The notes under the pieces are model-generated. The model searched no databases. It was given only the letters and a program-made list of their open reading frames with translations, and had not been told where the DNA came from. From Synechocystis sp. PCC 6803 substr. PCC-P (GTDB taxonomy: Bacteria; Cyanobacteriota; Cyanobacteriia; Cyanobacteriales; Microcystaceae), in assembly GCF_000284455.1 (NCBI RefSeq), contig NC_017039.1:1200001-1232000 (forward strand): a stretch of 32,000 nt of DNA. The letters run 5' to 3'. Positions 1-32,000 of this stretch are shown here, one piece after another; position 1 is the first letter of the stretch, and each line of letters begins with the position of its first letter. Position numbers and translations under genes: made by a program.

Positions 1-52
1 CCCGCGCCAACCAGAACCATTATCTAAATTTCACGGCCAGCAGTCTATTAGG

Positions 53-2086
53 TTGCAAAGTTTTCCTGAGCTCTGTTTAAGTTTACCTGAAGGCAGTCAT
101 TATTTGACTGCAAGAATGAATTTATATGAACATTTTGGTCATGATCAGGTGTTTAAAGCTTGCATTGATTACCTAGAAAAAGCCCTAGAAAAATTGGGAA
201 TACTAGATAGCGATATTCCAGCTAGGTTATTACTAGTTTTTCCGGATCACACCCGCACCGCCATTGCGGTTCGCCTACTGTTAGACGCTATTTTTTACTT
301 CCAGGAAACCTATAAGCATTTACAATTCAGCATCCTTTTTGGTTTAGGTACCCATCCCCCTATGACACATAAAAGTGTGAGTGAATATTTGGGGGGGGAG
401 CGTTATCAAAAATTGATTAATCTGGGAATTACTATTCGTCAACAGACCACAATTGCCCCCCTGGAACCCCAAGTAAAAATTAAGGTGCAAGATCGATTAA
501 AAATTGATGAAGTTTCCAATTACAGTTTTGCAAATTTGAATAGAAACACTGCCCAGTTACAAGAAGTGATCGCCGATTTAAATACGGTTAATTTATCTGA
601 TTTAGATGAAAATTTATTGATAAAAAACCAATTTGATTTTCCTAATCAAACCAATGAGTTAAATCAAAAACCTCAAATAAAAACAACAAAACTATCCGAT
701 AATTTCAATCCGTCTCAAGAATATTTTCTTTCTTTGCCTGGGGAATTGTGGCAACATCACCTTACTATTGTAGCAGGAGACACAGAGATACATCCCTACG
801 AAAGAAGGGGCGGAAGTGGCGGCTTGAATAAAATGTTAGTGGTAGGTTTGGCCAATATTCAGGCCATTCGTCGTAGTCATAGCACCAAAGTTTTACTAAG
901 TTCGCCAATCAGTCTAGACCTAACACAAAATGCCTTTGTTCATACCTTGGATTATTTAGTAGAGTGCTTTAATCAATCTCTATTAACTCGTACTCCTTGC
1001 CTTGCTCGCACCTATCCCCTCGGCTTTTCCGTTGTTTCCTTGGAAAATCAGCATGTTAATGGTTTTTGGTTCGGCCAAAAGGATCAAGACCGACAAGCTC
1101 TGACGGCGATCGCCAAAGAAAGTCGCACTGTTCATTTACCAGAAAAAATTCATATTCTAGTGGTGGATACAGATATCAAAAAAGGCACTGATATTTTAGC
1201 TGGCGCTAGAGCTTTACAATACGTATGCGAGTGGGATAGTCAAGAAAATTGTCTGCTAGCCGATACTCCTCGTCAAAGAGTTGCCCTCCTATTTAACCCT
1301 TGTCTGGAACAACAAAACCATGGTGGTATTGGTAACCAAGGGACTAAAAAGCAATTAGATGTCTTGCAAAAAATAGTGCACAGCAAAATAAAATTATTTA
1401 GTAGTCAGTTACAAATGTGTGAAAATTTCGATGATGTAATTGGTATTATCAAAACTTACCGTCGACAAGTTTTAACTGCTTGGTATCACCATTTACAACT
1501 CATTAGTGAATTTGATGATTTTCTTGTAATGATCAGAAATGTAGTGTTGATTATCCAAGAGTTGCCTAACTCATCTAAACACCAAATTAATACTAGGGAA
1601 TTTCTGCAAGCAACCTTAGCCAATTATGCCAATGAATACAGTGAAGAGGCAAAATCTATTCAAGAATTACTTGATATTTATCTCACCCACGAAAATTTAG
1701 GAGCAGTGATTACTAAAATAGATCAACTCCAGCAATATTATCAATTATCTGAAGGTTTGGGAGAAGGTGGGCAAAGAGTTTTACGTTGTTTAAAATTACT
1801 GCATAAATTTGAAACTTTTTTGCTAGCCACGGACAATCAAACCGTACTAGATTATTTGGCTAAACTAGATCCCGATTTGAACAACTATCTTCCTCCAGCA
1901 TTAAGGAAAATATTAGATAAACAAAAAATTCATCTAAATTTACTAGGAATTCGGGGCATTAATTTGACTGTTTATTCACCCCAACAATGTTTAGAATTAG
2001 CGATAAATTACGGGCAATATTACAATCACGAATCTCAAGACCTACGTATTGCTTTTCTACAAGAGCCGTTAATTGTTTACCATTAA
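53..2086 (+). CDS. LarA-like (lactate racemase N-terminal / DUF2088-type) domain protein with an N/Q-rich insertion and a ~250-aa helical C-terminal extension
   Basis: 677-aa ORF (TTG at 53; first ATG at 116). The blocks LLLVFPDHTRTAIA, GLGTHPPMTH, VAGDTEIHPYERRGGSGGLNKMLV and AIRRSHS resemble, from memory, the SDHTRP / GFHRP / SHFFAGFSGGRK / ANHS blocks of LarA-type enzymes. A 13-nt gap to the next gene suggests an operon. The function is inferred only. Confidence 0.55.
   Translation: MQSFPELCLSLPEGSHYLTARMNLYEHFGHDQVFKACIDYLEKALEKLGILDSDIPARLLLVFPDHTRTAIAVRLLLDAIFYFQETYKHLQFSILFGLGTHPPMTHKSVSEYLGGERYQKLINLGITIRQQTTIAPLEPQVKIKVQDRLKIDEVSNYSFANLNRNTAQLQEVIADLNTVNLSDLDENLLIKNQFDFPNQTNELNQKPQIKTTKLSDNFNPSQEYFLSLPGELWQHHLTIVAGDTEIHPYERRGGSGGLNKMLVVGLANIQAIRRSHSTKVLLSSPISLDLTQNAFVHTLDYLVECFNQSLLTRTPCLARTYPLGFSVVSLENQHVNGFWFGQKDQDRQALTAIAKESRTVHLPEKIHILVVDTDIKKGTDILAGARALQYVCEWDSQENCLLADTPRQRVALLFNPCLEQQNHGGIGNQGTKKQLDVLQKIVHSKIKLFSSQLQMCENFDDVIGIIKTYRRQVLTAWYHHLQLISEFDDFLVMIRNVVLIIQELPNSSKHQINTREFLQATLANYANEYSEEAKSIQELLDIYLTHENLGAVITKIDQLQQYYQLSEGLGEGGQRVLRCLKLLHKFETFLLATDNQTVLDYLAKLDPDLNNYLPPALRKILDKQKIHLNLLGIRGINLTVYSPQQCLELAINYGQYYNHESQDLRIAFLQEPLIVYH
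1106..1113. repeat. HIP1 octamer palindrome GCGATCGC (representative copy)
   Basis: About 30 perfect copies by manual scan, for example 1106, 4371, 6655, 8401, 16432 and 16862. This abundance is a hallmark of many cyanobacterial genomes. Confidence 0.9.
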
Positions 2087-2099
2087 TCATGATTGACCA

Positions 2100-3170
2100 A
2101 TGAATTCATTCTTGATTATTATTTTTCGACTGTATTTGCCTATTAGTGTGGCAATTTTAACTGGTGTTTTATTGAGTTTTTCCCTTGAAAAACTGCAGGG
2201 AAACTTTTCAAAAAACAAGCATCTGTCCCTAGTAGTTCCCAATTACTTGGGTAAGTTTCTCTTTTGGTTTGGAGTTCCCCTAGGGGTAATTAACTTTGTT
2301 CATAAAGCGAATTTATCCGGAGGAATTTGGCTCTCCCCCATCGTAGCTTGGGGCGCGGTTGTACTGGGGATTTTTCTAAGCTGGCTCTGGGTCCAAACCC
2401 TTTTTCCCAAACCATCCCTTGCTTTCCAAACTAGTTTTACTTTAGTTAGTACAGTGGGCAATACTAGTTACATCGGCTTTCCAATTATTCTATTGCTTCC
2501 CCAACTGGGGCCAGACTATTTTGGTTGGGCAATTTTGTATGATCTTTTAGGAACTTTTTTAGCCGCCTATGGCTTAGGCTCAATTTTAGCCAGTCGTAGT
2601 TTACTTACTAATCCCAACAAAATAATCAGCTTTGGTCTCGATTCACCAGTATTTCCTATTAATCAAAAGACTATTACTGACCATATTAAGTCGTCTATAT
2701 TAAAAATTTTTCAATGGCTAAAAAACAACTTAGTTATCTTAGTTAAAAATCCTACTTTAATTGCTTTTATCATTGGTTTGATTTTGCGTCCTATAGTCTT
2801 TCCTCCCTGGTTAGATATTTCTTTAGGGTGGTTTGCTTGGTCGATAATCATGCTTTCCCTAATATTGATGGGCATGCGGCTACAACAACTCGACTCATGG
2901 GGCAACATTAAGATTGCTTTCAGCGCTGTCTCGATTAAAATGCTTTTAGTTCCCCTAGTTATCGCCATGGCCCTAACCACTGCTGGATTGAGTGGCCCGC
3001 CTCGCCTAGTCTTGGTACTACAATCATCCATGCCTTCTGCTTTTGCTAGCCTGATATTAGCAGAGGCCTACGATCTAGACCGAGATTTGGTGGTGACGTG
3101 CTTGGGGCTAAGCTCTTTGATGTTATTTTTCACCCTGCCTTTCTGGCTATGGGGCTTTACCACTTGGTAA
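2100..3170 (+). CDS. AEC (auxin efflux carrier) family membrane permease
   Basis: 356-aa ORF that is almost entirely hydrophobic. Two bundles of about 5 helices are separated by a hydrophilic loop (NPNKIISFGLDSPVFPINQKTITDHIKSS). This is the usual AEC/PF03547-type layout. Confidence 0.7.
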   Translation: MNSFLIIIFRLYLPISVAILTGVLLSFSLEKLQGNFSKNKHLSLVVPNYLGKFLFWFGVPLGVINFVHKANLSGGIWLSPIVAWGAVVLGIFLSWLWVQTLFPKPSLAFQTSFTLVSTVGNTSYIGFPIILLLPQLGPDYFGWAILYDLLGTFLAAYGLGSILASRSLLTNPNKIISFGLDSPVFPINQKTITDHIKSSILKIFQWLKNNLVILVKNPTLIAFIIGLILRPIVFPPWLDISLGWFAWSIIMLSLILMGMRLQQLDSWGNIKIAFSAVSIKMLLVPLVIAMALTTAGLSGPPRLVLVLQSSMPSAFASLILAEAYDLDRDLVVTCLGLSSLMLFFTLPFWLWGFTTW

Positions 3171-3218
3171 ATTTGGTTACACGAAACTCGCCATTAATCA
3201 CTGAATGGAATCAACATT

Positions 3219-4610
3219 TTGCATAAAACTTTACCAAGATTTTTATCTTTTCCCATTACTATTTGTCTGGTAACCTTTGGTTCTTTCTTCTTATTTAGCT
3301 GTAATTCAGGTCAGGTTAACCAAATTTTAACACCTGCTGATGACAATGTGTTAAACATATGGTGGAGTGAAGGTTATTACCCAGAAGAAACGGAAGCGAT
3401 TCAATCTTCCATTGATGCCTGGCAGGCTGAAAGTCAAGCTAATGTTCAGATAATTTTTTTTAGTGAAAAAGATTTAGTGCAACAGCTGGAAAATGCCATC
3501 AAGGCCGGTAATCCACCGGATATTATTTATAGTTATAATCTTGATTTAGTGCTTCTGCCCCGACTAGCATGGGAAGGAAAATTAGCTGATGTTTCTAGTA
3601 TCATTGAGCCGATCAAACAATTTTATGATCCAGAAGCTCTTCAAAGCGTTAATTATTTTAATAATCAAACTCGCCAGCGTTCCTACTATGCTGTCCCCAT
3701 TGCCCAACAAACAACCTATATTCATTATTGGCAAGATTTACTAGCCCAAGCGGAAATTAGCGACGCTCAGCTTCCTACAGAATGGGATAGTTTTTGGCGC
3801 TTCTGGGAAGTAGCTCAAACGAATTTAATTAAGCAGAATATTGATAATATTTACGCCATTGGTTTACCTATGTCTGCAATTGCAACTGATACTTTTATCG
3901 TGTTTGAACAGTTTTTAGAAGCTTATAATGTGCAGCTTTTAGATGATGAGGGCAAACTCCGTTTTGATAATCCCCAAGTCCGCCAAGGCATTATTAATGC
4001 ATTGGAAGCCTATACCAATCCCTATTTGGAAAATTTTGTTCCTCCCAATGCCATCGAATGGGGAGATCCGGACAATAATATTAATTTTTTGAGTAATGGT
4101 ACCTTGATGACTGCCAATGGTTCCCTCTCAATTCCGGGCTCTCAAAAGGGAGACGAAATTAATTATTTTCAAAGAATGAGGACCATCCCTTGGCCTAATA
4201 AGCCAGATAACACTCCCATGCGCTATATAACTTCTATTAAGCAAATTGCCATCCTGGCCGAGACTGATCGCCTAGAGGAAGCAAAAAATTTAGTGGCATT
4301 CTTGGTCAAGACAGAAAATTTGGAAGCATATTTAGAAGGAGCCCAGGGACGATTTTTGCCGGTTATGCCGGCGATCGCCGCCAATGAATTTTGGTCTAAT
4401 GGAAAGGATCCCCACATTGCGGTAGCCATTACCCAATTTGACAATACCCGTAGTTCCTATGTCTTACTTAACCCGGCCTATAGTGAAGTTCTGGCCCAAA
4501 ATGTCTGGGGAGAAGTTATTCACGCCATTGCCACCAATCAAATCACGCCTGAAAAAGGAGCCGATCAAGCCATAAAAAAAATAACTGATATTTTTAGTCA
4601 ATGGAAATAA
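3219..4610 (+). CDS. Extracellular solute-binding lipoprotein (ABC-type family 1, sugar/oligosaccharide-like), orphan
   Basis: 463-aa ORF with a TTG start. The N-terminal signal has a lipobox-like LFSC (FGSFFLFSCNSG). Size and composition are typical of family-1 SBPs. No ABC permease or ATPase gene lies next to it. Confidence 0.75.
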   Translation: MHKTLPRFLSFPITICLVTFGSFFLFSCNSGQVNQILTPADDNVLNIWWSEGYYPEETEAIQSSIDAWQAESQANVQIIFFSEKDLVQQLENAIKAGNPPDIIYSYNLDLVLLPRLAWEGKLADVSSIIEPIKQFYDPEALQSVNYFNNQTRQRSYYAVPIAQQTTYIHYWQDLLAQAEISDAQLPTEWDSFWRFWEVAQTNLIKQNIDNIYAIGLPMSAIATDTFIVFEQFLEAYNVQLLDDEGKLRFDNPQVRQGIINALEAYTNPYLENFVPPNAIEWGDPDNNINFLSNGTLMTANGSLSIPGSQKGDEINYFQRMRTIPWPNKPDNTPMRYITSIKQIAILAETDRLEEAKNLVAFLVKTENLEAYLEGAQGRFLPVMPAIAANEFWSNGKDPHIAVAITQFDNTRSSYVLLNPAYSEVLAQNVWGEVIHAIATNQITPEKGADQAIKKITDIFSQWK

Positions 4611-4617
4611 TTTATTT

Positions 4618-5619
4618 ATGCAAAGCTGGCGACACAGGTTCCTGAGTTATGTGCTTTTAGCCTGTTTATCCTGCACTAGTTTTACTGCCTTTATTATCTA
4701 CGTTAATCTACGCCAAGCTGTAATTCAACCCACGTTTGAATTTTTGACAGAGATGACAGAGGTAAAAATTGAGCAATCAAATCATTGGTTTAGTCAATTA
4801 AAAACTGATTTTAAGGCAGACTTAACAGACACCCAAGTCAAAAAAAATGCCAGTATTTTGTTGACTCAAAGACTTAATACTAACCCTGAGTATCAGCAAG
4901 CCTACCACTATTTACACAAACATTTTAATCAAAAATATCAACAACGCCTAGCCACTTCATTAATCACCAATAGTGGCATGGTGATCTTTTCCACTGACCC
5001 CAATCAGGAGGGTCAATATCGTCCTCTACAAAATACTACAACCTATTTTAAGCTGGAAAATATCAATAATTTTACACCAAATTTTTATCAGTCTGCCACC
5101 AATCAACTACCGATGATAACCCTAGCAACTCCTTTGTTTGATCAATCAGAAAAAAGAATTGGGGTGCTGACCATAGATTTAAACTTGTCTGATCTTGACC
5201 AATGGATTCGTCAACCCGTGGCCCAGGAGGAAAATACAGAGCAATTAATGGGGGAGGTGGAAAGTTACCTAGTAGGAGGATTATCTTTAACCACCAACAC
5301 TTTTGTGAGCCAGAATATTCATCGAGGAGAAAATAAAATCAATACCACCGAAGATGTCATTTCAATCCCCACCCTAAAAAGTAATGGCATTAATAGGGCT
5401 TTGGAGATGGAAAGTGGTCAAGGCATGTATTTAAACTATGAACAAATACCTGTTTTGGGAGTTTATCGTTGGTTGCCTGCCTATCGGTTTGCCTTACTGG
5501 TGGAAGTTCGGCAGGCCAAAGTGTTTAGCTTTGCTCGGTTTCGTGCCGGGCAATTATTTGTTGGTGGTTTGGTATTCACTCTGGCGGCATCCTTTGGTTT
5601 ATTGTTGATTAAAATTTGA
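4618..5619 (+). CDS. Membrane-anchored periplasmic Cache/PDC-like sensor domain protein lacking any cytoplasmic output domain
   Basis: 333 aa. TM1 is FLSYVLLACLSCTSFTAFIIYV, followed by a ~270-aa extracytoplasmic segment. That segment ends in a Cache-like signature (GMYLNYEQIPVLGVYRWLPAYRFALLVEVRQAKVFSF). TM2 (LFVGGLVFTLAASFGLLLI) follows and the stop codon comes immediately after. The gap from the SBP gene is 7 nt. Confidence 0.6.
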   Translation: MQSWRHRFLSYVLLACLSCTSFTAFIIYVNLRQAVIQPTFEFLTEMTEVKIEQSNHWFSQLKTDFKADLTDTQVKKNASILLTQRLNTNPEYQQAYHYLHKHFNQKYQQRLATSLITNSGMVIFSTDPNQEGQYRPLQNTTTYFKLENINNFTPNFYQSATNQLPMITLATPLFDQSEKRIGVLTIDLNLSDLDQWIRQPVAQEENTEQLMGEVESYLVGGLSLTTNTFVSQNIHRGENKINTTEDVISIPTLKSNGINRALEMESGQGMYLNYEQIPVLGVYRWLPAYRFALLVEVRQAKVFSFARFRAGQLFVGGLVFTLAASFGLLLIKI

Positions 5620-5733
5620 TTGCAAATTTCCTCCTCCACAAGATAGATATCCAGGAAAATTGATCGCCACCTTAAGAGTTTTAAACAAATCCTAGACGCA
5701 AGAAATAAGCTTTTTTCTCCGTAGAATCAACGT

Positions 5734-5785
5734 CGAAAGTCCCCCTTTTTAAGCCGGAGCTTTAGTGAGGAGATTTGGGGGGATA
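5734..5785. repeat. Degenerate copy of a cyanobacterial small dispersed repeat (C5...G6 arms), possibly MITE-like
   Basis: GAAAGTCCCCCTTTTTAAG...GATTTGGGGGGAT. It resembles the widespread AAAGTCCCCCTTTTTAAGGGGGATTTAGGGGGA-type element recalled from other cyanobacterial genomes. Here the arms are interrupted, with C5 at 5741-5745 and G6 at 5777-5782. Confidence 0.25.
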
Positions 5786-6018
5786 AATACCTAGCCTCGC
5801 ACTTTTCAAACACTTTCTAAGACGAGCAGATAATTTTGGGTCTATCCCCGTCCCTTTGACCGGGTAATGATTTCAGCATAGGTAAAATTTTTTAGGCTAA
5901 GTATGGACAATGACTGTTATTTACCTGGAAATTGGAAATTCTGTCATTCCCACGGGAAAGGCCGCCCTAACCCCGTAAAATAAGGGGCAATTAGTTTTCT
6001 CGTATTTTTTCCATTGTT

Positions 6019-28191: not shown

Positions 28192-29010
28192 ATGAGTGAA
28201 CCTAACCTCAACCCCGCCTATACCCTCGACCAGGCGATCGCCAATTTGCAACAAACAGAAGATGCCAGTGCCCGTTACTATGCGGCCTGGTGGATTGGTC
28301 GTTTTCGCGCTGCTCAACCGGAAACCATTGCTGCTTTGTTGGTCGCCTTGGAAGATGAAACTGATCGCTCCCCGGACGGTGGTTATCCCCTGCGGCGTAA
28401 TGCGGCTAAAGCGTTGGGAAAATTAGGCGATCGCCAAGTGGTGCCGGCCCTAATCAAAGCCTTGGAATGTGAAGATTACTATGTGCGAGAGTCAGCGGCC
28501 CAGGCGCTGGAAGGTTTGGGGGATGCTAGAGCGATGGCACCTCTAATGGCCAAGTTAACGGGGGGATTAGCAGCGGCCCAGCTTGTGGAGGGTAAACCCC
28601 ATTTAGCCCAACCCTACGAAGCGATTATTGAAGCCCTGGGTACTCTCCAAGCTGTGGAGTCCATTGGTTTAATTGAACCGTTTCTAGAGCATTTTTCCCC
28701 GAAAGTCCAATACGCCGCCGCCAGGGCCCTATTTCAGTTAACTGGGGATAACCGTTACGGCGACCTTCTCATTACTGCTCTGGGGGGGACAGACTTACAA
28801 TTACGCCGTTCCGCCATGATGGATTTGGGAGCCACTGGCTACTTGCCCGGCGCCCAGGCGATCGCCAAAGCCTTTGCAGAAAATAGCCTCAAGTTGATCG
28901 CCCTGCGAGATTTGTGGGCCACCCATCGCCAAAGGCAAGCAAGTTCTGAATCGAAGGCGCTCAGTCCAGCTAGCCGACAAATATTGGAATTAATGGATAG
29001 TTTACTCTGA
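28192..29010 (+). CDS. cpcE: Phycocyanobilin lyase subunit CpcE (HEAT-like PBS lyase repeats)
   Basis: MSEPNLNPAYTLDQAIANLQQ...RYYAAWWIGRFR...RRNAAKALGKLGD...VRESAAQALEGLGD. The ATG at 28192 is preferred to the TTG at 28168. No cpcF lies downstream. Confidence 0.9.
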   Translation: MSEPNLNPAYTLDQAIANLQQTEDASARYYAAWWIGRFRAAQPETIAALLVALEDETDRSPDGGYPLRRNAAKALGKLGDRQVVPALIKALECEDYYVRESAAQALEGLGDARAMAPLMAKLTGGLAAAQLVEGKPHLAQPYEAIIEALGTLQAVESIGLIEPFLEHFSPKVQYAAARALFQLTGDNRYGDLLITALGGTDLQLRRSAMMDLGATGYLPGAQAIAKAFAENSLKLIALRDLWATHRQRQASSESKALSPASRQILELMDSLL

Positions 29011-29042
29011 AATAATTGGAAATTTACAGATTTACGGAGATT

Positions 29043-30239
29043 TCAAGCTAGCCCCAGGGATTCTTCCAACGCACCAATTACGACTTCCGCCACCTGTTGA
29101 ATGCGAAAACGACAGGCCAGGGTTTCAGTGGAATTAAAACTGCCATTTTCCCAAAATTTATTACTGCCAGCGCCACCACCACACAAACCGAAATAATCAC
29201 AGGTTTGGCGACATTTTTCCACCCCCTGGGTCATATCGTGGTAAATGCGCTGGAATTTTTCCGTTTGACAAATAGATGCAAAAGAATCCGTTAACACATT
29301 ACCAAAAATAAAATCACCATACTGGGGCGTTTTAATGGCTAATAATTCTGGGTCAAAGGTGGAAAAGTTACCCTGGTGGTCGATGCTAACAATGGCAAAG
29401 GGACGATTCATATCCGTGTGATCGAGACGGTCTTCGGTGTAAATCAAATTGCATAAACATTCAAATTCCCGCACTCGAAATTCTGGTTCACTGGTGCTGG
29501 TTAATTGCCAAAATCGTTCCAAAAATTGTCGATATTTTTGTAAAGTGCCCTGTTTATTCAGGGAAGATTCTGTGTTAATTCCCTCTGTTTCTTCCATATT
29601 AAAACCCACATCCAGTAGGTTATGATCCCGGAAAAAGTGAAAAATTTCGTCGGGATAATCTAAAGATTCTTCAGTTAAAACTGCAATAACACTGTGACAA
29701 ATATCATTTTTTTGTAACCATTCAATGCCTCGCATGGTGGCGGCATGGCTACCCCGGCCAGTTCTGGTTTTACGGTGTTTATCGTGGAGAAAAGCGGGGC
29801 CGTCTAAACTAATACCCACATGGACAGGATATTGTTTAAAGAGGTCACACCAAGCTTGGTTAATTAAAATGCCATTACTTTGAAAGGAATGGTCAAACCA
29901 CAGTTGGCGGTGATTGTATTTTTCCCCGTAGGTTTCGATCTTGGCAAAAGCCTGACGGTAAAATTCTAGCCCAGCGGCCAATGGTTCCCCCGCATGCCAA
30001 CACAGACTAAAGTTGCTAGTGGTAAAAGGGCTAGCAAAAATCGCCTGCATAATTGGTTCCAACAAATCCAGGGGCAGATGATTTTTTAAATGGCGATCGG
30101 GTAAGTAACAATAATCACAATCTAAATTGCAATAGGAAGTGGGTTGAATAATAATTAAATTGGTGGGGCCAAAATTAGTTATGTCCACATCCCTTATACT
30201 TTCATTAATGGGTTGGGTTTGGTTGACTAAAGCTTGCAT
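29043..30239 (-). CDS. grrM: Radical SAM / SPASM-type maturase of the Gly-rich-repeat modification (GRRM) family, related to anaerobic sulfatase-maturase-like enzymes
   Basis: 398 aa. CNLDCDYC (CX3CX2C) at aa 37-44 was checked against the DNA at 30108-30131. GEPL follows. Seven Cys lie in the C-terminal 140 aa (C261, C263, C324, C343, C347, C353, C376), including CRQTCDYFGLCGGG. It is the last gene of a same-strand cluster with the Gly-rich precursors. The symbol follows the GRRM naming as I recall it. Confidence 0.9.
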   Translation of the reverse strand: MQALVNQTQPINESIRDVDITNFGPTNLIIIQPTSYCNLDCDYCYLPDRHLKNHLPLDLLEPIMQAIFASPFTTSNFSLCWHAGEPLAAGLEFYRQAFAKIETYGEKYNHRQLWFDHSFQSNGILINQAWCDLFKQYPVHVGISLDGPAFLHDKHRKTRTGRGSHAATMRGIEWLQKNDICHSVIAVLTEESLDYPDEIFHFFRDHNLLDVGFNMEETEGINTESSLNKQGTLQKYRQFLERFWQLTSTSEPEFRVREFECLCNLIYTEDRLDHTDMNRPFAIVSIDHQGNFSTFDPELLAIKTPQYGDFIFGNVLTDSFASICQTEKFQRIYHDMTQGVEKCRQTCDYFGLCGGGAGSNKFWENGSFNSTETLACRFRIQQVAEVVIGALEESLGLA

Positions 30240-30278
30240 AAGTGATCACCAATTGAGGCAAATGATTTGTTATTACAA

Positions 30279-30797
30279 TTAAAGGGGAGAAGTACATACC
30301 CAGATTGACTTTTGTTCATTAACTGGATCCATAATCAGTTGTGGCGCTAACCCTAAATTAGATTCCCTTGTTTCTTCAAAGTTAGAACCAAATACTGCTT
30401 GAAGTGGTTCACGGGCAATCTCCACAGGAACCTCAAAGGTGACAGCATAAACTCCCCAGGTGCCCGCCGGAATCATAACTGCTGAAACAGGAAGACCGTA
30501 ATAACTTTCCTTAATTTGATAGTAAGCAAAGTCATCCTCGATTTTATCTGGCACAAGACGCTGAAAAAATCGATGTTTTGGCCGATCAATCCCTTCCCAG
30601 GGAGCAAGATAAACTCCTTCAAATTTACATTCAGGAAAGCTCCGCATCATGTCCTCAAAATCACTGGCAAAGTTATCGGTAATGACTTTCGCCGGCTCGG
30701 CAAGAAGGGGTTGGGATGGTAATAGTTGGTAACCAACAATTGCCAGGGAGACTATCACTACCCGATAAGCAGAAACAGATGAGAAAGAAAACAGCAA
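30279..30797 (-). CDS. Hypothetical secreted protein embedded in the GRRM cluster
   Basis: 172 aa with a TTG start. The signal-like N-terminus is YRVVIVSLAIVGYQLLPSQPLLA-EP. The mature part contains two Cys. No recognisable domain. The gaps are 44 nt to the upstream gene and 39 nt to the downstream gene. Confidence 0.65.
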   Translation of the reverse strand: MLFSFSSVSAYRVVIVSLAIVGYQLLPSQPLLAEPAKVITDNFASDFEDMMRSFPECKFEGVYLAPWEGIDRPKHRFFQRLVPDKIEDDFAYYQIKESYYGLPVSAVMIPAGTWGVYAVTFEVPVEIAREPLQAVFGSNFEETRESNLGLAPQLIMDPVNEQKSIWVCTSPL

Positions 30798-30841
30798 TTT
30801 TGTTCCCTAGGTTTCAGTGTTGGCTGTGAAATGTTAGTAAA

Positions 30842-31276
30842 CTACCAACGATTAACAAAACCACCGCCGCCGCCCCGGTTAACAAAGCCTCCCCCGTCTC
30901 CCCAACCATTGCCCCAGGGATTATTAACATTGGCAAAGCCGCCGCCCCCACTGCCATCGGCCCAGCCGCCGCGCCCGACATTAGCAAAGCCACCGCCCCC
31001 GGCACCATCACCCCATCCTCCCCGCCGGGCATTACCAAAACCACCACCACCGCCACCATTGGCAAAACCAGCTTGTAGATTAGCTCGATTGATGGGAGTT
31101 TCCTCTGGGGACATTTGATTAGCCCTTTGCTGTAGAGCTGAGCTGATATTGTTTAACCGAGTGGAAAGGGCATTCTGAGAATTAGTTGCCAGGGCATTGC
31201 CCGGTTCTGCCACTGTTCCGATCGCCGTTAGGGCAATTACAAATGCTGTCCAGCTAGAGCGGTTATTGATAGCCAT
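30842..31276 (-). CDS. grrA: Gly-rich repeat precursor protein B (signal peptide, leader-like segment, 75-aa G/W/F/N repeat tail)
   Basis: The track ORF runs to 31333. The ATG at 31276 (MAINNRSSWTAFVIALTAIG) aligns with the paralogue's N-terminus (MNSNQLSWTAFLVAIAG) and has GGGAG about 8 nt upstream. The tail is GFANGGGGGGFGNARRGGWGDGAGGGGFANVGRGGWADGSGGGGFANVNNPWGNGWGDGGGFVNRGGGGGFVNRW. Confidence 0.85.
   Translation of the reverse strand: MAINNRSSWTAFVIALTAIGTVAEPGNALATNSQNALSTRLNNISSALQQRANQMSPEETPINRANLQAGFANGGGGGGFGNARRGGWGDGAGGGGFANVGRGGWADGSGGGGFANVNNPWGNGWGDGGGFVNRGGGGGFVNRW
30845..31069 (-). repeat. In-frame coding tandem repeat (about 51 nt / 17 aa unit) in precursor B
   Basis: On the plus strand, attggcaaagccgccgcccccactgccatcggcccagccgccgcgcccgac is followed by attagcaaagccaccgcccccggcaccatcaccccatcctccccgccgggc. 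These encode RGGWADGSGGGGFANVN and RGGWGDGAGGGGFANVG. More degenerate copies flank them. Confidence 0.8.
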
Positions 31277-31342
31277 GGATATTGCTCCCAGATTAATGAG
31301 GTGATGGGGAAAGAACAGATGGATGGATCTCAATGATAAGCC

Positions 31343-31747
31343 TTACCAACGGTTGATGAAGCCGCCCCCATCAGGCCAACGACGGTTATAGAAACCGCCC
31401 CGATCGCCCCAGCCGTTACGCCAAGGATTGATATTGCCGAAGCCACCGCCCCCTCGGCCATTGCCCCAGCCACCTCTACCTAGGTTAACAAATGTACCGC
31501 CACCTCGCCCATTACCCCAACCGATCGCCACCTGCATAGGGGTTTCTGGAGATTGGGAAGCATTTTCTGGGGAATTAGCTTTATCAGCAGTGTTTTTAAG
31601 GCTGGAATTAATGCGAGCAATGCGGGATTCAATGGTGGTGCCTTGATCTGGGCCATGATGGTCAACAGTGGCAGCCTGAGCTGAAGCGGACGTTACCCCG
31701 GCGATCGCCACCAGGAAAGCGGTCCAGCTAAGTTGGTTAGAGTTCAT
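31343..31747 (-). CDS. grrA: Gly-rich repeat precursor protein A (signal peptide, leader-like segment, 60-aa G/W/F/N repeat tail)
   Basis: 134 aa. The signal peptide is MNSNQLSWTAFLVAIAGVTSASAQA. The tail is IGWGNGRGGGTFVNLGRGGWGNGRGGGGFGNINPWRNGWGDRGGFYNRRWPDGGGFINRW. It shares the C-terminal F-[VI]-N-R-W with the paralogue and contains no Cys. Confidence 0.9.
   Translation of the reverse strand: MNSNQLSWTAFLVAIAGVTSASAQAATVDHHGPDQGTTIESRIARINSSLKNTADKANSPENASQSPETPMQVAIGWGNGRGGGTFVNLGRGGWGNGRGGGGFGNINPWRNGWGDRGGFYNRRWPDGGGFINRW
31346..31525 (-). repeat. Degenerate coding repeats (GRGG-W-G-N-G / GGG-F-x-N units) in precursor A
   Basis: GWGNGRGGGTFVNLGRGGWGNGRGGGGFGNIN contains two consecutive copies of about 15-17 aa. 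The C-terminal units are shorter. Confidence 0.7.
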
Positions 31748-31855
31748 GACAAATACCTAAAAATGGACAACAACAATGGGGGTAGGGATTAGCCAAGGTT
31801 GGAACAGTCCCCAAAACGTGCCAACCAAATTACTACCAATTAAAGTCAACTTCGT

Positions 31856-32000
31856 TTACTGGCCATTTTTGGGTTCCATCACCTGCTCATGGGTAATTAC
31901 TAGGTAATTAAAAAATTGACGGAGATTGTCATTGTCCACGGGCACAATACCTTCGGTGCCGATCCATTTGTCAACGATGGCCACATCTTCCGGATCCCCT
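31856..32000 (-). CDS. 3' end of an unidentified gene running off the window edge
   Basis: My translation of the minus strand from 31999: GDPEDVAIVDKWIGTEGIVPVDNDNLRQFFNYLVITHEQVMEPKNGQ*, with the TAA at 31858-31856. The frame stays open to the window edge. No family recognised. Confidence 0.45.
   Translation of the reverse strand, partial: GDPEDVAIVDKWIGTEGIVPVDNDNLRQFFNYLVITHEQVMEPKNGQ

Follow-up and report, generated by a model that had tools for sequence, protein, structure and literature searches.

The window analysed here, a 32,000-nt stretch of DNA from Synechocystis sp. PCC 6803 (NC_017039.1, positions 1,200,001 to 1,232,000), carries at its right-hand end a series of minus-strand genes that in all likelihood make up the glycine-rich repeat modification (GRRM) or triceptide cassette of this organism. 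The cassette comprises, in this order, grrP (sll1762), grrA1 (sll1763), grrA2 (sll1764), sll1765 and grrM (sll1766), all on the minus strand. An exact-sequence look-up identified four of the window proteins as sll1763, sll1764, sll1765 and sll1766 of Synechocystis sp. PCC 6803. The two precursor genes are grrA1 (31343..31747), which encodes 134 residues from an ATG, and grrA2 (30842..31276), which encodes 144 residues, also from an ATG; the open frame of the latter reaches a TTG at 31333, which would give 163 residues, and the public records carry the 144-residue form. They are followed by sll1765 (30279..30797), with 172 residues from a TTG start (159 residues in the Kazusa form), and by grrM (29043..30239), with 398 residues from an ATG. 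The successive gaps that separate sll1763, sll1764, sll1765 and sll1766 are 66, 44 and 39 nt. A preliminary description of this DNA, made from its letters, had recorded the four serial genes together with these gaps, the protein lengths, a CNLDCDYC motif and a C-terminal Cys cluster in the enzyme, and the open reading frame (ORF) listing and the sequence bear all of this out. It missed a fifth gene on the same strand, because the window ends inside it: the last 47 codons and the stop codon of grrP lie at 31856..31999.

The enzyme sll1766 was assigned by profile search against NCBIfam, in which the GrrM/OscB model TIGR04261 matched with 638.3 bits against a cutoff of 310, and residues 31-393 aligned with positions 1-363 of the 363-position model, covering it in full. 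The lower-ranked matches, namely AmcB (296 bits), YhhB (147 bits), FxsB (121 bits) and DynA, all stay below their own cutoffs. Pfam places a Radical_SAM domain in the protein with 58.1 bits. The motif CNLDCDYC (CX3CX2C; residues 37-44, 30108..30131, minus strand) has its three cysteines C37, C41 and C44 invariant in 80 of 80 homologues, and the alignment of these homologues shows the same invariance for the C-terminal cluster C343/C347/C353/C376 (29112..29213, minus strand), arranged as C343-x3-C347-x5-C353-GGG plus C376. In addition, C131, which lies outside the canonical cluster motifs, is invariant in 80/80. By its sequence, sll1766 belongs over its full length to the GrrM/OscB family, whose radical S-adenosylmethionine (SAM) enzymes form three-residue cyclophanes, and is a putative radical SAM/SPASM cyclophane synthase.

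The closest solved structures to sll1766 are the radical SAM domain of ChlB (PDB 9gm3), which is the best PDB match, and the anaerobic sulfatase-maturating enzyme (anSME; PDB 4k36-4k39), at an E-value of ~6e-21. The presence of anSME among them (E 7e-21), and the original GenBank name of sll1766, 'putative arylsulfatase regulatory protein' (aslB), would fit an enzyme that matures sulfatases and has no relation to the glycine-rich proteins. However, the anSME model TIGR03942 scores only 161.1 bits against a cutoff of 349.45, compared with the 638 bits of the GrrM model; no sulfatase genes were found near sll1766, and GrrM is strictly syntenic with GrrA across cyanobacteria. An anSME identity was rejected on the TIGR03942 score, which is far under the cutoff, and we regard it as so improbable as to be negligible. 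The two enzymes would share a SPASM-type radical SAM fold and Cβ-H abstraction on a peptide, but differ in substrate and in outcome, which is expected to be a C-C cross-link for GrrM and is oxidation to formylglycine for anSME. Similarly, XncB, MscB, YhhB, AmcB, FxsB and ChlB have in common with sll1766 the radical SAM core, the C-terminal Cys-rich domain and an Ω1-X2-X3 motif; sll1766 nevertheless scores below the cutoffs of families of these types, whose enzymes differ in residue specificity. Their precursors consist of a short leader and core, whereas GrrA proteins bear a signal peptide and have ~140 residues. As to base composition, the guanine-cytosine (GC) content is 0.42 in grrM and 0.43 in sll1765 (0.39 and 0.34 at third codon positions), compared with ~0.49-0.53 in the surrounding genes (29001..31000).

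Both precursors match the NCBIfam model TIGR04260 ("GrrA/OscA1 family cyclophane-containing rSAM-modified RiPP", RiPP standing for ribosomally synthesised and post-translationally modified peptide), sll1763 with 75.7 bits and sll1764 with 57.7 bits against a cutoff of 31, and are by this measure members of the cognate substrate family of GrrM. They are paralogues, as the preliminary description had supposed, with 35% identity and an E-value of 8e-4 in BLASTP. In sll1763, a predicted signal peptide (residues 1-25, 31673..31747, minus strand) precedes the leader helix TIESRIARINSSLK, which is conserved, and the core is Gly-rich (residues 77-134, 31346..31519, minus strand), with nine W/F-x-N/D motifs, namely WGN, FVN, WGN, FGN, WRN, WGD, FYN, WPD and FIN. 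In sll1764, a predicted signal peptide (residues 1-30, 31187..31276, minus strand) and a core (residues 71-144, 30845..31066, minus strand) were delimited likewise, the latter with ten motifs (FAN, FGN, WGD, FAN, WAD, FAN, WGN, WGD, FVN and FVN). Part of this core is encoded by a tandem repeat of 51 nt in 2.7 copies (30927..31063, minus strand; Tandem Repeats Finder, 75% matches, score 148), whose 17-residue unit GGWxDGxGGGGFANVGR contains one WxD and one FxN. Read from their sequences, both GrrA proteins begin with a Sec-type signal sequence, after which come an amphipathic, conserved leader helix and the Gly-rich core with its aromatic triplets. The grrA genes have a GC content of 0.55-0.56, a richness due to their Gly codons.

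The aromatic residues of the cores are placed with great regularity. Apart from the C-terminal Trp, all core Trp and Phe residues of both precursors stand in W/F-x-N/D triplets, 19 in total. When each core was shuffled 20,000 times with its composition preserved, sll1763 gave 1.5 ± 1.1 motifs with a maximum of 6, against 9 observed, and sll1764 gave 1.8 ± 1.2 with a maximum of 7, against 10 observed. Across 90 GrrA proteins, Asn or Asp follows at +2 for 311 of 334 core Trp residues and Asn for 397 of 436 core Phe residues, while Tyr and His stand outside the rule of N/D at +2; the median number of motifs per protein is 9. The N-terminus is also a family trait, as a hydrophobic segment with n-h-c organisation is found in 89 of the 90 proteins, followed by AXA-like sites and then by a conserved helix, IE(S/G)RL(S/A)RI..L(K/R).

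This pattern agrees with the specificity published for OscB (IPR026357), which, according to a review of the primary work (PMC11002830), forms three-residue cyclophanes from residue i to i+2 by joining Trp-C7 to the Cβ of Asn or Asp and Phe-C4 to the Cβ of Asn. The triceptide chemistry that the preliminary description had named for this enzyme family is confirmed by the same review. The OscA/OscB system, described from Oscillatoria by Nguyen and co-workers (Nat Chem 2020; here after that review), belongs to the enzyme family TIGR04261, equivalent to IPR026357, and to the precursor family TIGR04260, as does the present one, and the W-x-N/D and F-x-N motifs of PCC 6803 match its reported cross-links from Trp-C7 and Phe-C4 to Cβ(i+2). 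The locus described here, whose cross-links are predicted ones, differs from it in species, in the number of precursors (two, one of them with 9 motifs and the other with 10) and in the extra gene sll1765. The GRRM identity put forward in the preliminary description, for which a hidden Markov model (HMM) search had been suggested, is upheld by that search, the enzyme passing the GrrM/OscB model and both precursors the GrrA/OscA1 model. The novelty it implied was overstated, since RefSeq already names these exact sequences GrrM/OscB (enzyme) and GrrA/OscA1 (precursors). The locus is already known and is annotated accordingly, the family to which it belongs (OscA/OscB; GRRM) being a curated one with an experimental foundation. 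It is a useful pointer rather than a discovery, because the naming in RefSeq is already correct.

Comparison of genomes revealed which genes belong to the conserved cassette. A scan for GrrM with one genome per species gave 222 relatives, and the best 80 loci, nearly all of them cyanobacterial, were compared. With an iterated GrrA HMM, 69 of the 80 loci were found to have between one and three GrrA genes immediately upstream of GrrM and on its strand, in line with the co-occurrence that the preliminary description had expected, and two further loci to have weak GrrA-like ORFs downstream of GrrM. The remaining nine loci have no GrrA, and five of these end at a contig edge. In the window, grrA is likewise upstream of grrM on the same strand, with sll1765 inserted between them.

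ORF clustering revealed a further conserved partner of ~320 residues in 61 of the 80 loci, nearly always on the same strand and upstream of GrrA. A full-length orthologue from a metagenome-assembled genome (MAG; L002:3498-4403) matches TIGR04262 ("extracellular substrate binding-like orphan protein GrrP") with 242.9 bits against a cutoff of 190. Where 1.1 kb or more of upstream sequence is available (65 loci), 49 loci have GrrP as the immediate upstream neighbour of GrrA on its strand, at a median gap of 50 nt, and 63 of 66 GrrP copies have a signal-like N-terminus. In the window, the fragment of sll1762 lies 108 nt upstream of sll1763; its 47 residues align with positions 216-255 of TIGR04262 (E 5e-7), and since the window edge cuts the gene short, their score of 29.2 bits could not attain the cutoff of 190. 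The synteny of GrrP across loci therefore defines a conserved cassette of grrP, grrA(n) and grrM, and the true conserved third partner of the system is GrrP (sll1762), an orphan periplasmic binding protein. Of the GRRM system of NCBIfam (TIGR04260/TIGR04261/TIGR04262), the precursors and the enzyme are present here, and very probably the third component too, in the order grrP, grrA(n), grrM on one strand, except that the window holds grrP only in part and that a gene from outside these families splits the grrA-grrM junction.

Some loci depart from the common arrangement. A GrrA-GrrM pair is present in a complete 3.9-Mb chromosome labelled 'Candidatus Lustribacter' (L053, OZ255707.1), where GrrA has 192 residues and 16 motifs, and another in a MAG labelled Chitinophaga pinensis (L060); neither locus has a GrrP upstream. 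The presence of such pairs under non-cyanobacterial labels could be due to real lateral spread, or to mislabelling or mis-binning. Several Xenococcaceae genomes have two GrrM loci. At the second GrrM copy of two of them (L066 and L069), GrrP abuts GrrM directly, and the only GrrA-like ORF, a weak one (36-37 bits, ~107 residues), lies downstream of GrrM.

The gene sll1765 is of a different kind. The preliminary description had taken its 172-residue product as the third component of the system, a view that is not supported: the gene is found in just 2 of the 80 GrrM loci, it is absent from close relatives, and its wider family occurs on mobile islands. The two loci are those of S. salina (L001) and of the MAG L002, which has 89% GrrM identity. 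In three loci with 80-83% GrrM identity (L003-L005), sll1765 is missing and ~38 nt separate grrA2 and grrM. Such an uninterrupted junction indicates that sll1765 is a recent insertion of ~560 nt at the grrA-grrM junction. Alignment of the insertion junction with the uninterrupted relatives showed no target-site duplication and no other signature. A word-indexed search found only seven homologues of sll1765, all from Synechocystis, and no match was obtained in Pfam, NCBIfam, PADLOC or PHROGs. Compared with two orthologues, the ratio of nonsynonymous to synonymous substitution rates (dN/dS) is ~0.2 for sll1765, 0.04 for grrM and 0.12 for grrA2; sll1765 is a real gene.

Profile search against 1.84 billion representatives extended the family of sll1765 to 96 clusters at E ≤ 1e-3, 61 of them at E ≤ 1e-10, counted at 50% identity. 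The shared domain has ~125 residues and mostly makes up proteins of 150-190 residues, occasionally standing at the C-terminus of longer ones, one of which also contains an LprI lysozyme-inhibitor domain. Most members carry signal peptides or lipoboxes, and C57, P110 and C168 are invariant; the invariant Cys pair suggests a disulfide-bonded exported domain. A first AlphaFold2 model, built from seven close homologues, had a predicted local distance difference test score (pLDDT) of 46 and was unusable, whereas a second model from 14 sequences gave an α/β domain with a mean pLDDT of 74.9, and of 85-95 in residues 80-170. The search of this model against the PDB gave no fold match (best E 0.48, template modelling (TM) score < 0.3), and in a viral library the one match, to a phage protein that is itself uncharacterised, was marginal (E 2e-3, TM 0.30 to 0.33). 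As a minor by-product, the search points to an undescribed family of exported two-Cys domains, with ~96 clusters and without a Pfam model; the sequences behind this observation are the window segment 30279..30797 (minus strand) and entries P0051-P0145.

Two ways of reading sll1765 were weighed. In one of them, the gene has been co-opted in the Synechocystis clade as a fourth GRRM component, for instance as a periplasmic partner, a chaperone or an immunity-like protein. Its position inside the cassette with gaps of 44 and 39 nt, its retention in PCC 6803, CACIAM 05, S. salina strains and a related MAG, and the purifying selection expressed in the dN/dS of ~0.2 would agree with this, and the signal peptides or lipoboxes and the invariant Cys pair of its family fit the compartment of GrrA and GrrP. 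On the other hand, the gene is lacking from 78 of the 80 GrrM loci, including the relatives at 80-83% GrrM identity, and two distant members of the family have genes for integrase, RadC, restriction-modification and helicase as neighbours and none of the GRRM genes in their vicinity. The protein is also missing from the compiled proteomes discussed below. Moreover, other small exported-protein genes occupy the same junction elsewhere. In a Snowella MAG (L007:2007-2450, plus strand), a 147-residue signal-peptide protein unrelated to sll1765 lies between grrA and grrM, and in a MAG labelled uncultured Synechococcus sp. (L028:4965-5480, minus strand), a 171-residue lipoprotein-like ORF lies at the grrA-grrM junction on the opposite strand. 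These unrelated genes suggest a permissive insertion site, and the junction may be a recurrent landing site for genes of small exported proteins. We consider co-option unlikely; sll1765 is best read as a passenger that occupies a permissive site and stands outside the conserved system, a gene probably acquired horizontally and inserted between grrA2 and grrM in the clade of PCC 6803 and S. salina.

The localisation of the products was drawn from published tables. Both precursors carry predicted cleavable signal peptides and the enzyme has none. In a compiled localisation table (PMC12341915, Table S1), sll1763 is assigned to the Sec/SPI class (signal peptidase I) by SignalP with 0.99 and cleavage at AQA-AT between residues 25 and 26 (Pr 0.93), and sll1764 to the same class with 0.82-0.86 and cleavage at ALA-TN between residues 30 and 31. 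The enzyme sll1766 is classed as OTHER (0.95-0.98) and was detected in the soluble fraction. The 159-residue Kazusa form of sll1765 (OTHER; SP 0.42 / 0.18) and the 382-residue form of sll1762 are also classed as OTHER. Detections of sll1764 come from plasma-membrane, outer-membrane, membrane and soluble fractions, and those of sll1762, which is annotated as a periplasmic binding protein, from the periplasm (Fulda and one other study) and from soluble, extracellular and outer-membrane fractions. In addition, the EXCRETE exoproteome of PCC 6803 (PMC11424642, Supplementary Data 8) includes sll1762 and also sll1764, the latter with low intensity.

Regulatory data concern sll1762. It belongs to the direct NtcA regulon, with a promoter peak in chromatin immunoprecipitation sequencing under nitrogen starvation, a transcription start site (1233755c) inside that peak and a log2(-N/NH4) of 1.33, a 2.5-fold induction (PMC5714215, Table 2). 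The promoter lies upstream of the window end, at about genome position 1233657-1233801. The level of the sll1762 protein is lower in a ΔdacA mutant with low NtcA (PMC12454622), and Fulda 2006, cited in PMC6584798, reported that salt stress makes the protein accumulate. The only lead on the role of the product is nitrogen status, grrP being a direct NtcA-activated gene.

Several points weigh against the assignment of the locus as a GRRM cassette with exported products. In sll1766, the Pfam SPASM domain reaches 18.6 bits, under the gathering score of 21.5, and the canonical auxiliary-cluster cysteines C263 and C324 are kept in only 60-69% of the 80 homologues, which may reflect an atypical ligation of the auxiliary cluster in the GrrM subfamily or else an imperfect alignment. 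When 28900..32000 was scanned for promoter and terminator consensus sites, none lay in the gaps and there were fewer than in shuffled sequences, which is uninformative on co-transcription; this outcome is compatible with an operon and is no evidence for one. A full-text literature search for sll1763 to sll1766 found no mention in main texts and only papers on sll1762, and a search on GRRM and the TIGR identifiers found nothing relevant. In the compiled proteomics of PCC 6803 (PMC12341915, Table S1), sll1763 and sll1765 were never detected. The exoproteome list also contains cytoplasmic proteins, which makes the entry of sll1764 there weak evidence of export, and the n-region of sll1763 has no positive charge (no Lys or Arg).

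This last feature would also suit a hydrophobic segment that serves as an uncleaved membrane anchor, or as part of the recognition leader, so that the products stay at the cytoplasmic membrane. The detection of sll1764 in the plasma-membrane fraction and a SignalP cleavage-site probability of just 0.39-0.68 for this protein point the same way. Against an anchor stand the Sec/SPI value of 0.99 and the cleavage probability of 0.93 for sll1763, the n-h-c organisation with AXA-like sites in 89 of 90 GrrA proteins, the periplasmic location of the conserved neighbour GrrP, and the presence of sll1764 in the outer-membrane and exoproteome lists as well. Retention at the cytoplasmic membrane thus appears quite improbable, and export after cleavage of the signal peptide is the reading that we follow here.

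By analogy with the chemistry of OscB, the cytoplasmic GrrM would cleave SAM reductively, and the resulting 5'-deoxyadenosyl radical would abstract a Cβ-H from the Asn or Asp at i+2. The Cβ radical would then attack the aromatic residue at position i, at the indole C7 if it is Trp and at C4 if it is Phe. At most, one protein would gain 9 and the other 10 strained cyclophanes of three residues (19 sites), each with a loss of 2 Da. Modification would take place in the cytoplasm and be followed by Sec export, a reasonable inference since the enzyme is soluble and without a signal peptide. The three-residue rings are small and should not block translocation. Signal peptidase I would cut after AQA25 in sll1763 and after ALA30 in sll1764. 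Export in this scheme draws on the predicted signal peptides, the cytoplasmic enzyme and the periplasmic partner, and the cross-linked products of ~110 residues would encounter GrrP, the orphan protein of substrate-binding type, once in the periplasm or envelope.

The preliminary description had also drawn attention to an O2-sensitive enzyme class at work inside an oxygenic phototroph. We rejected the idea of a special paradox, as the situation is not specific to the locus; many radical SAM enzymes occur in cyanobacteria.

More tentatively, the GRRM products could be full-length poly-cyclophane envelope proteins of ~110 residues that keep the leader helix once the signal peptide is removed, rather than small secreted antibiotic-like RiPPs, and could be recognised by GrrP in the periplasm. 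The cassette would then belong to the response to nitrogen starvation that NtcA drives, and sll1765 would be an exported accessory of this clade, recruited from a gene family of mobile elements; we offer this combined proposal as a rather improbable possibility. The chemistry of the family rests on heterologous expression of the Oscillatoria homologue, and Synechocystis sp. PCC 6803 is a genetically tractable model that carries the full cassette. Published data for this strain show expression of the enzyme, a periplasmic location of GrrP, the presence of one of the precursors among envelope proteins and a response of grrP to NtcA, so that the physiological role can be tested directly in PCC 6803.

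The cassette is flanked downstream by a convergent gene for a PBS-lyase HEAT-repeat protein, which is preceded by an FAA-hydrolase family gene, and these neighbours agree with the PCC 6803 genome. A scan of the window with Rfam found no RNA family. At the other end of the window, positions 1..6000 have a GC content of 0.36-0.41, compared with ~0.49 in the remainder, and hold four ORFs on the same strand, which encode a 677-residue protein without a Pfam match, a Mem_trans permease, an SBP_bac_1/8 solute-binding protein and a dCache-domain protein; this block may be an acquired island.

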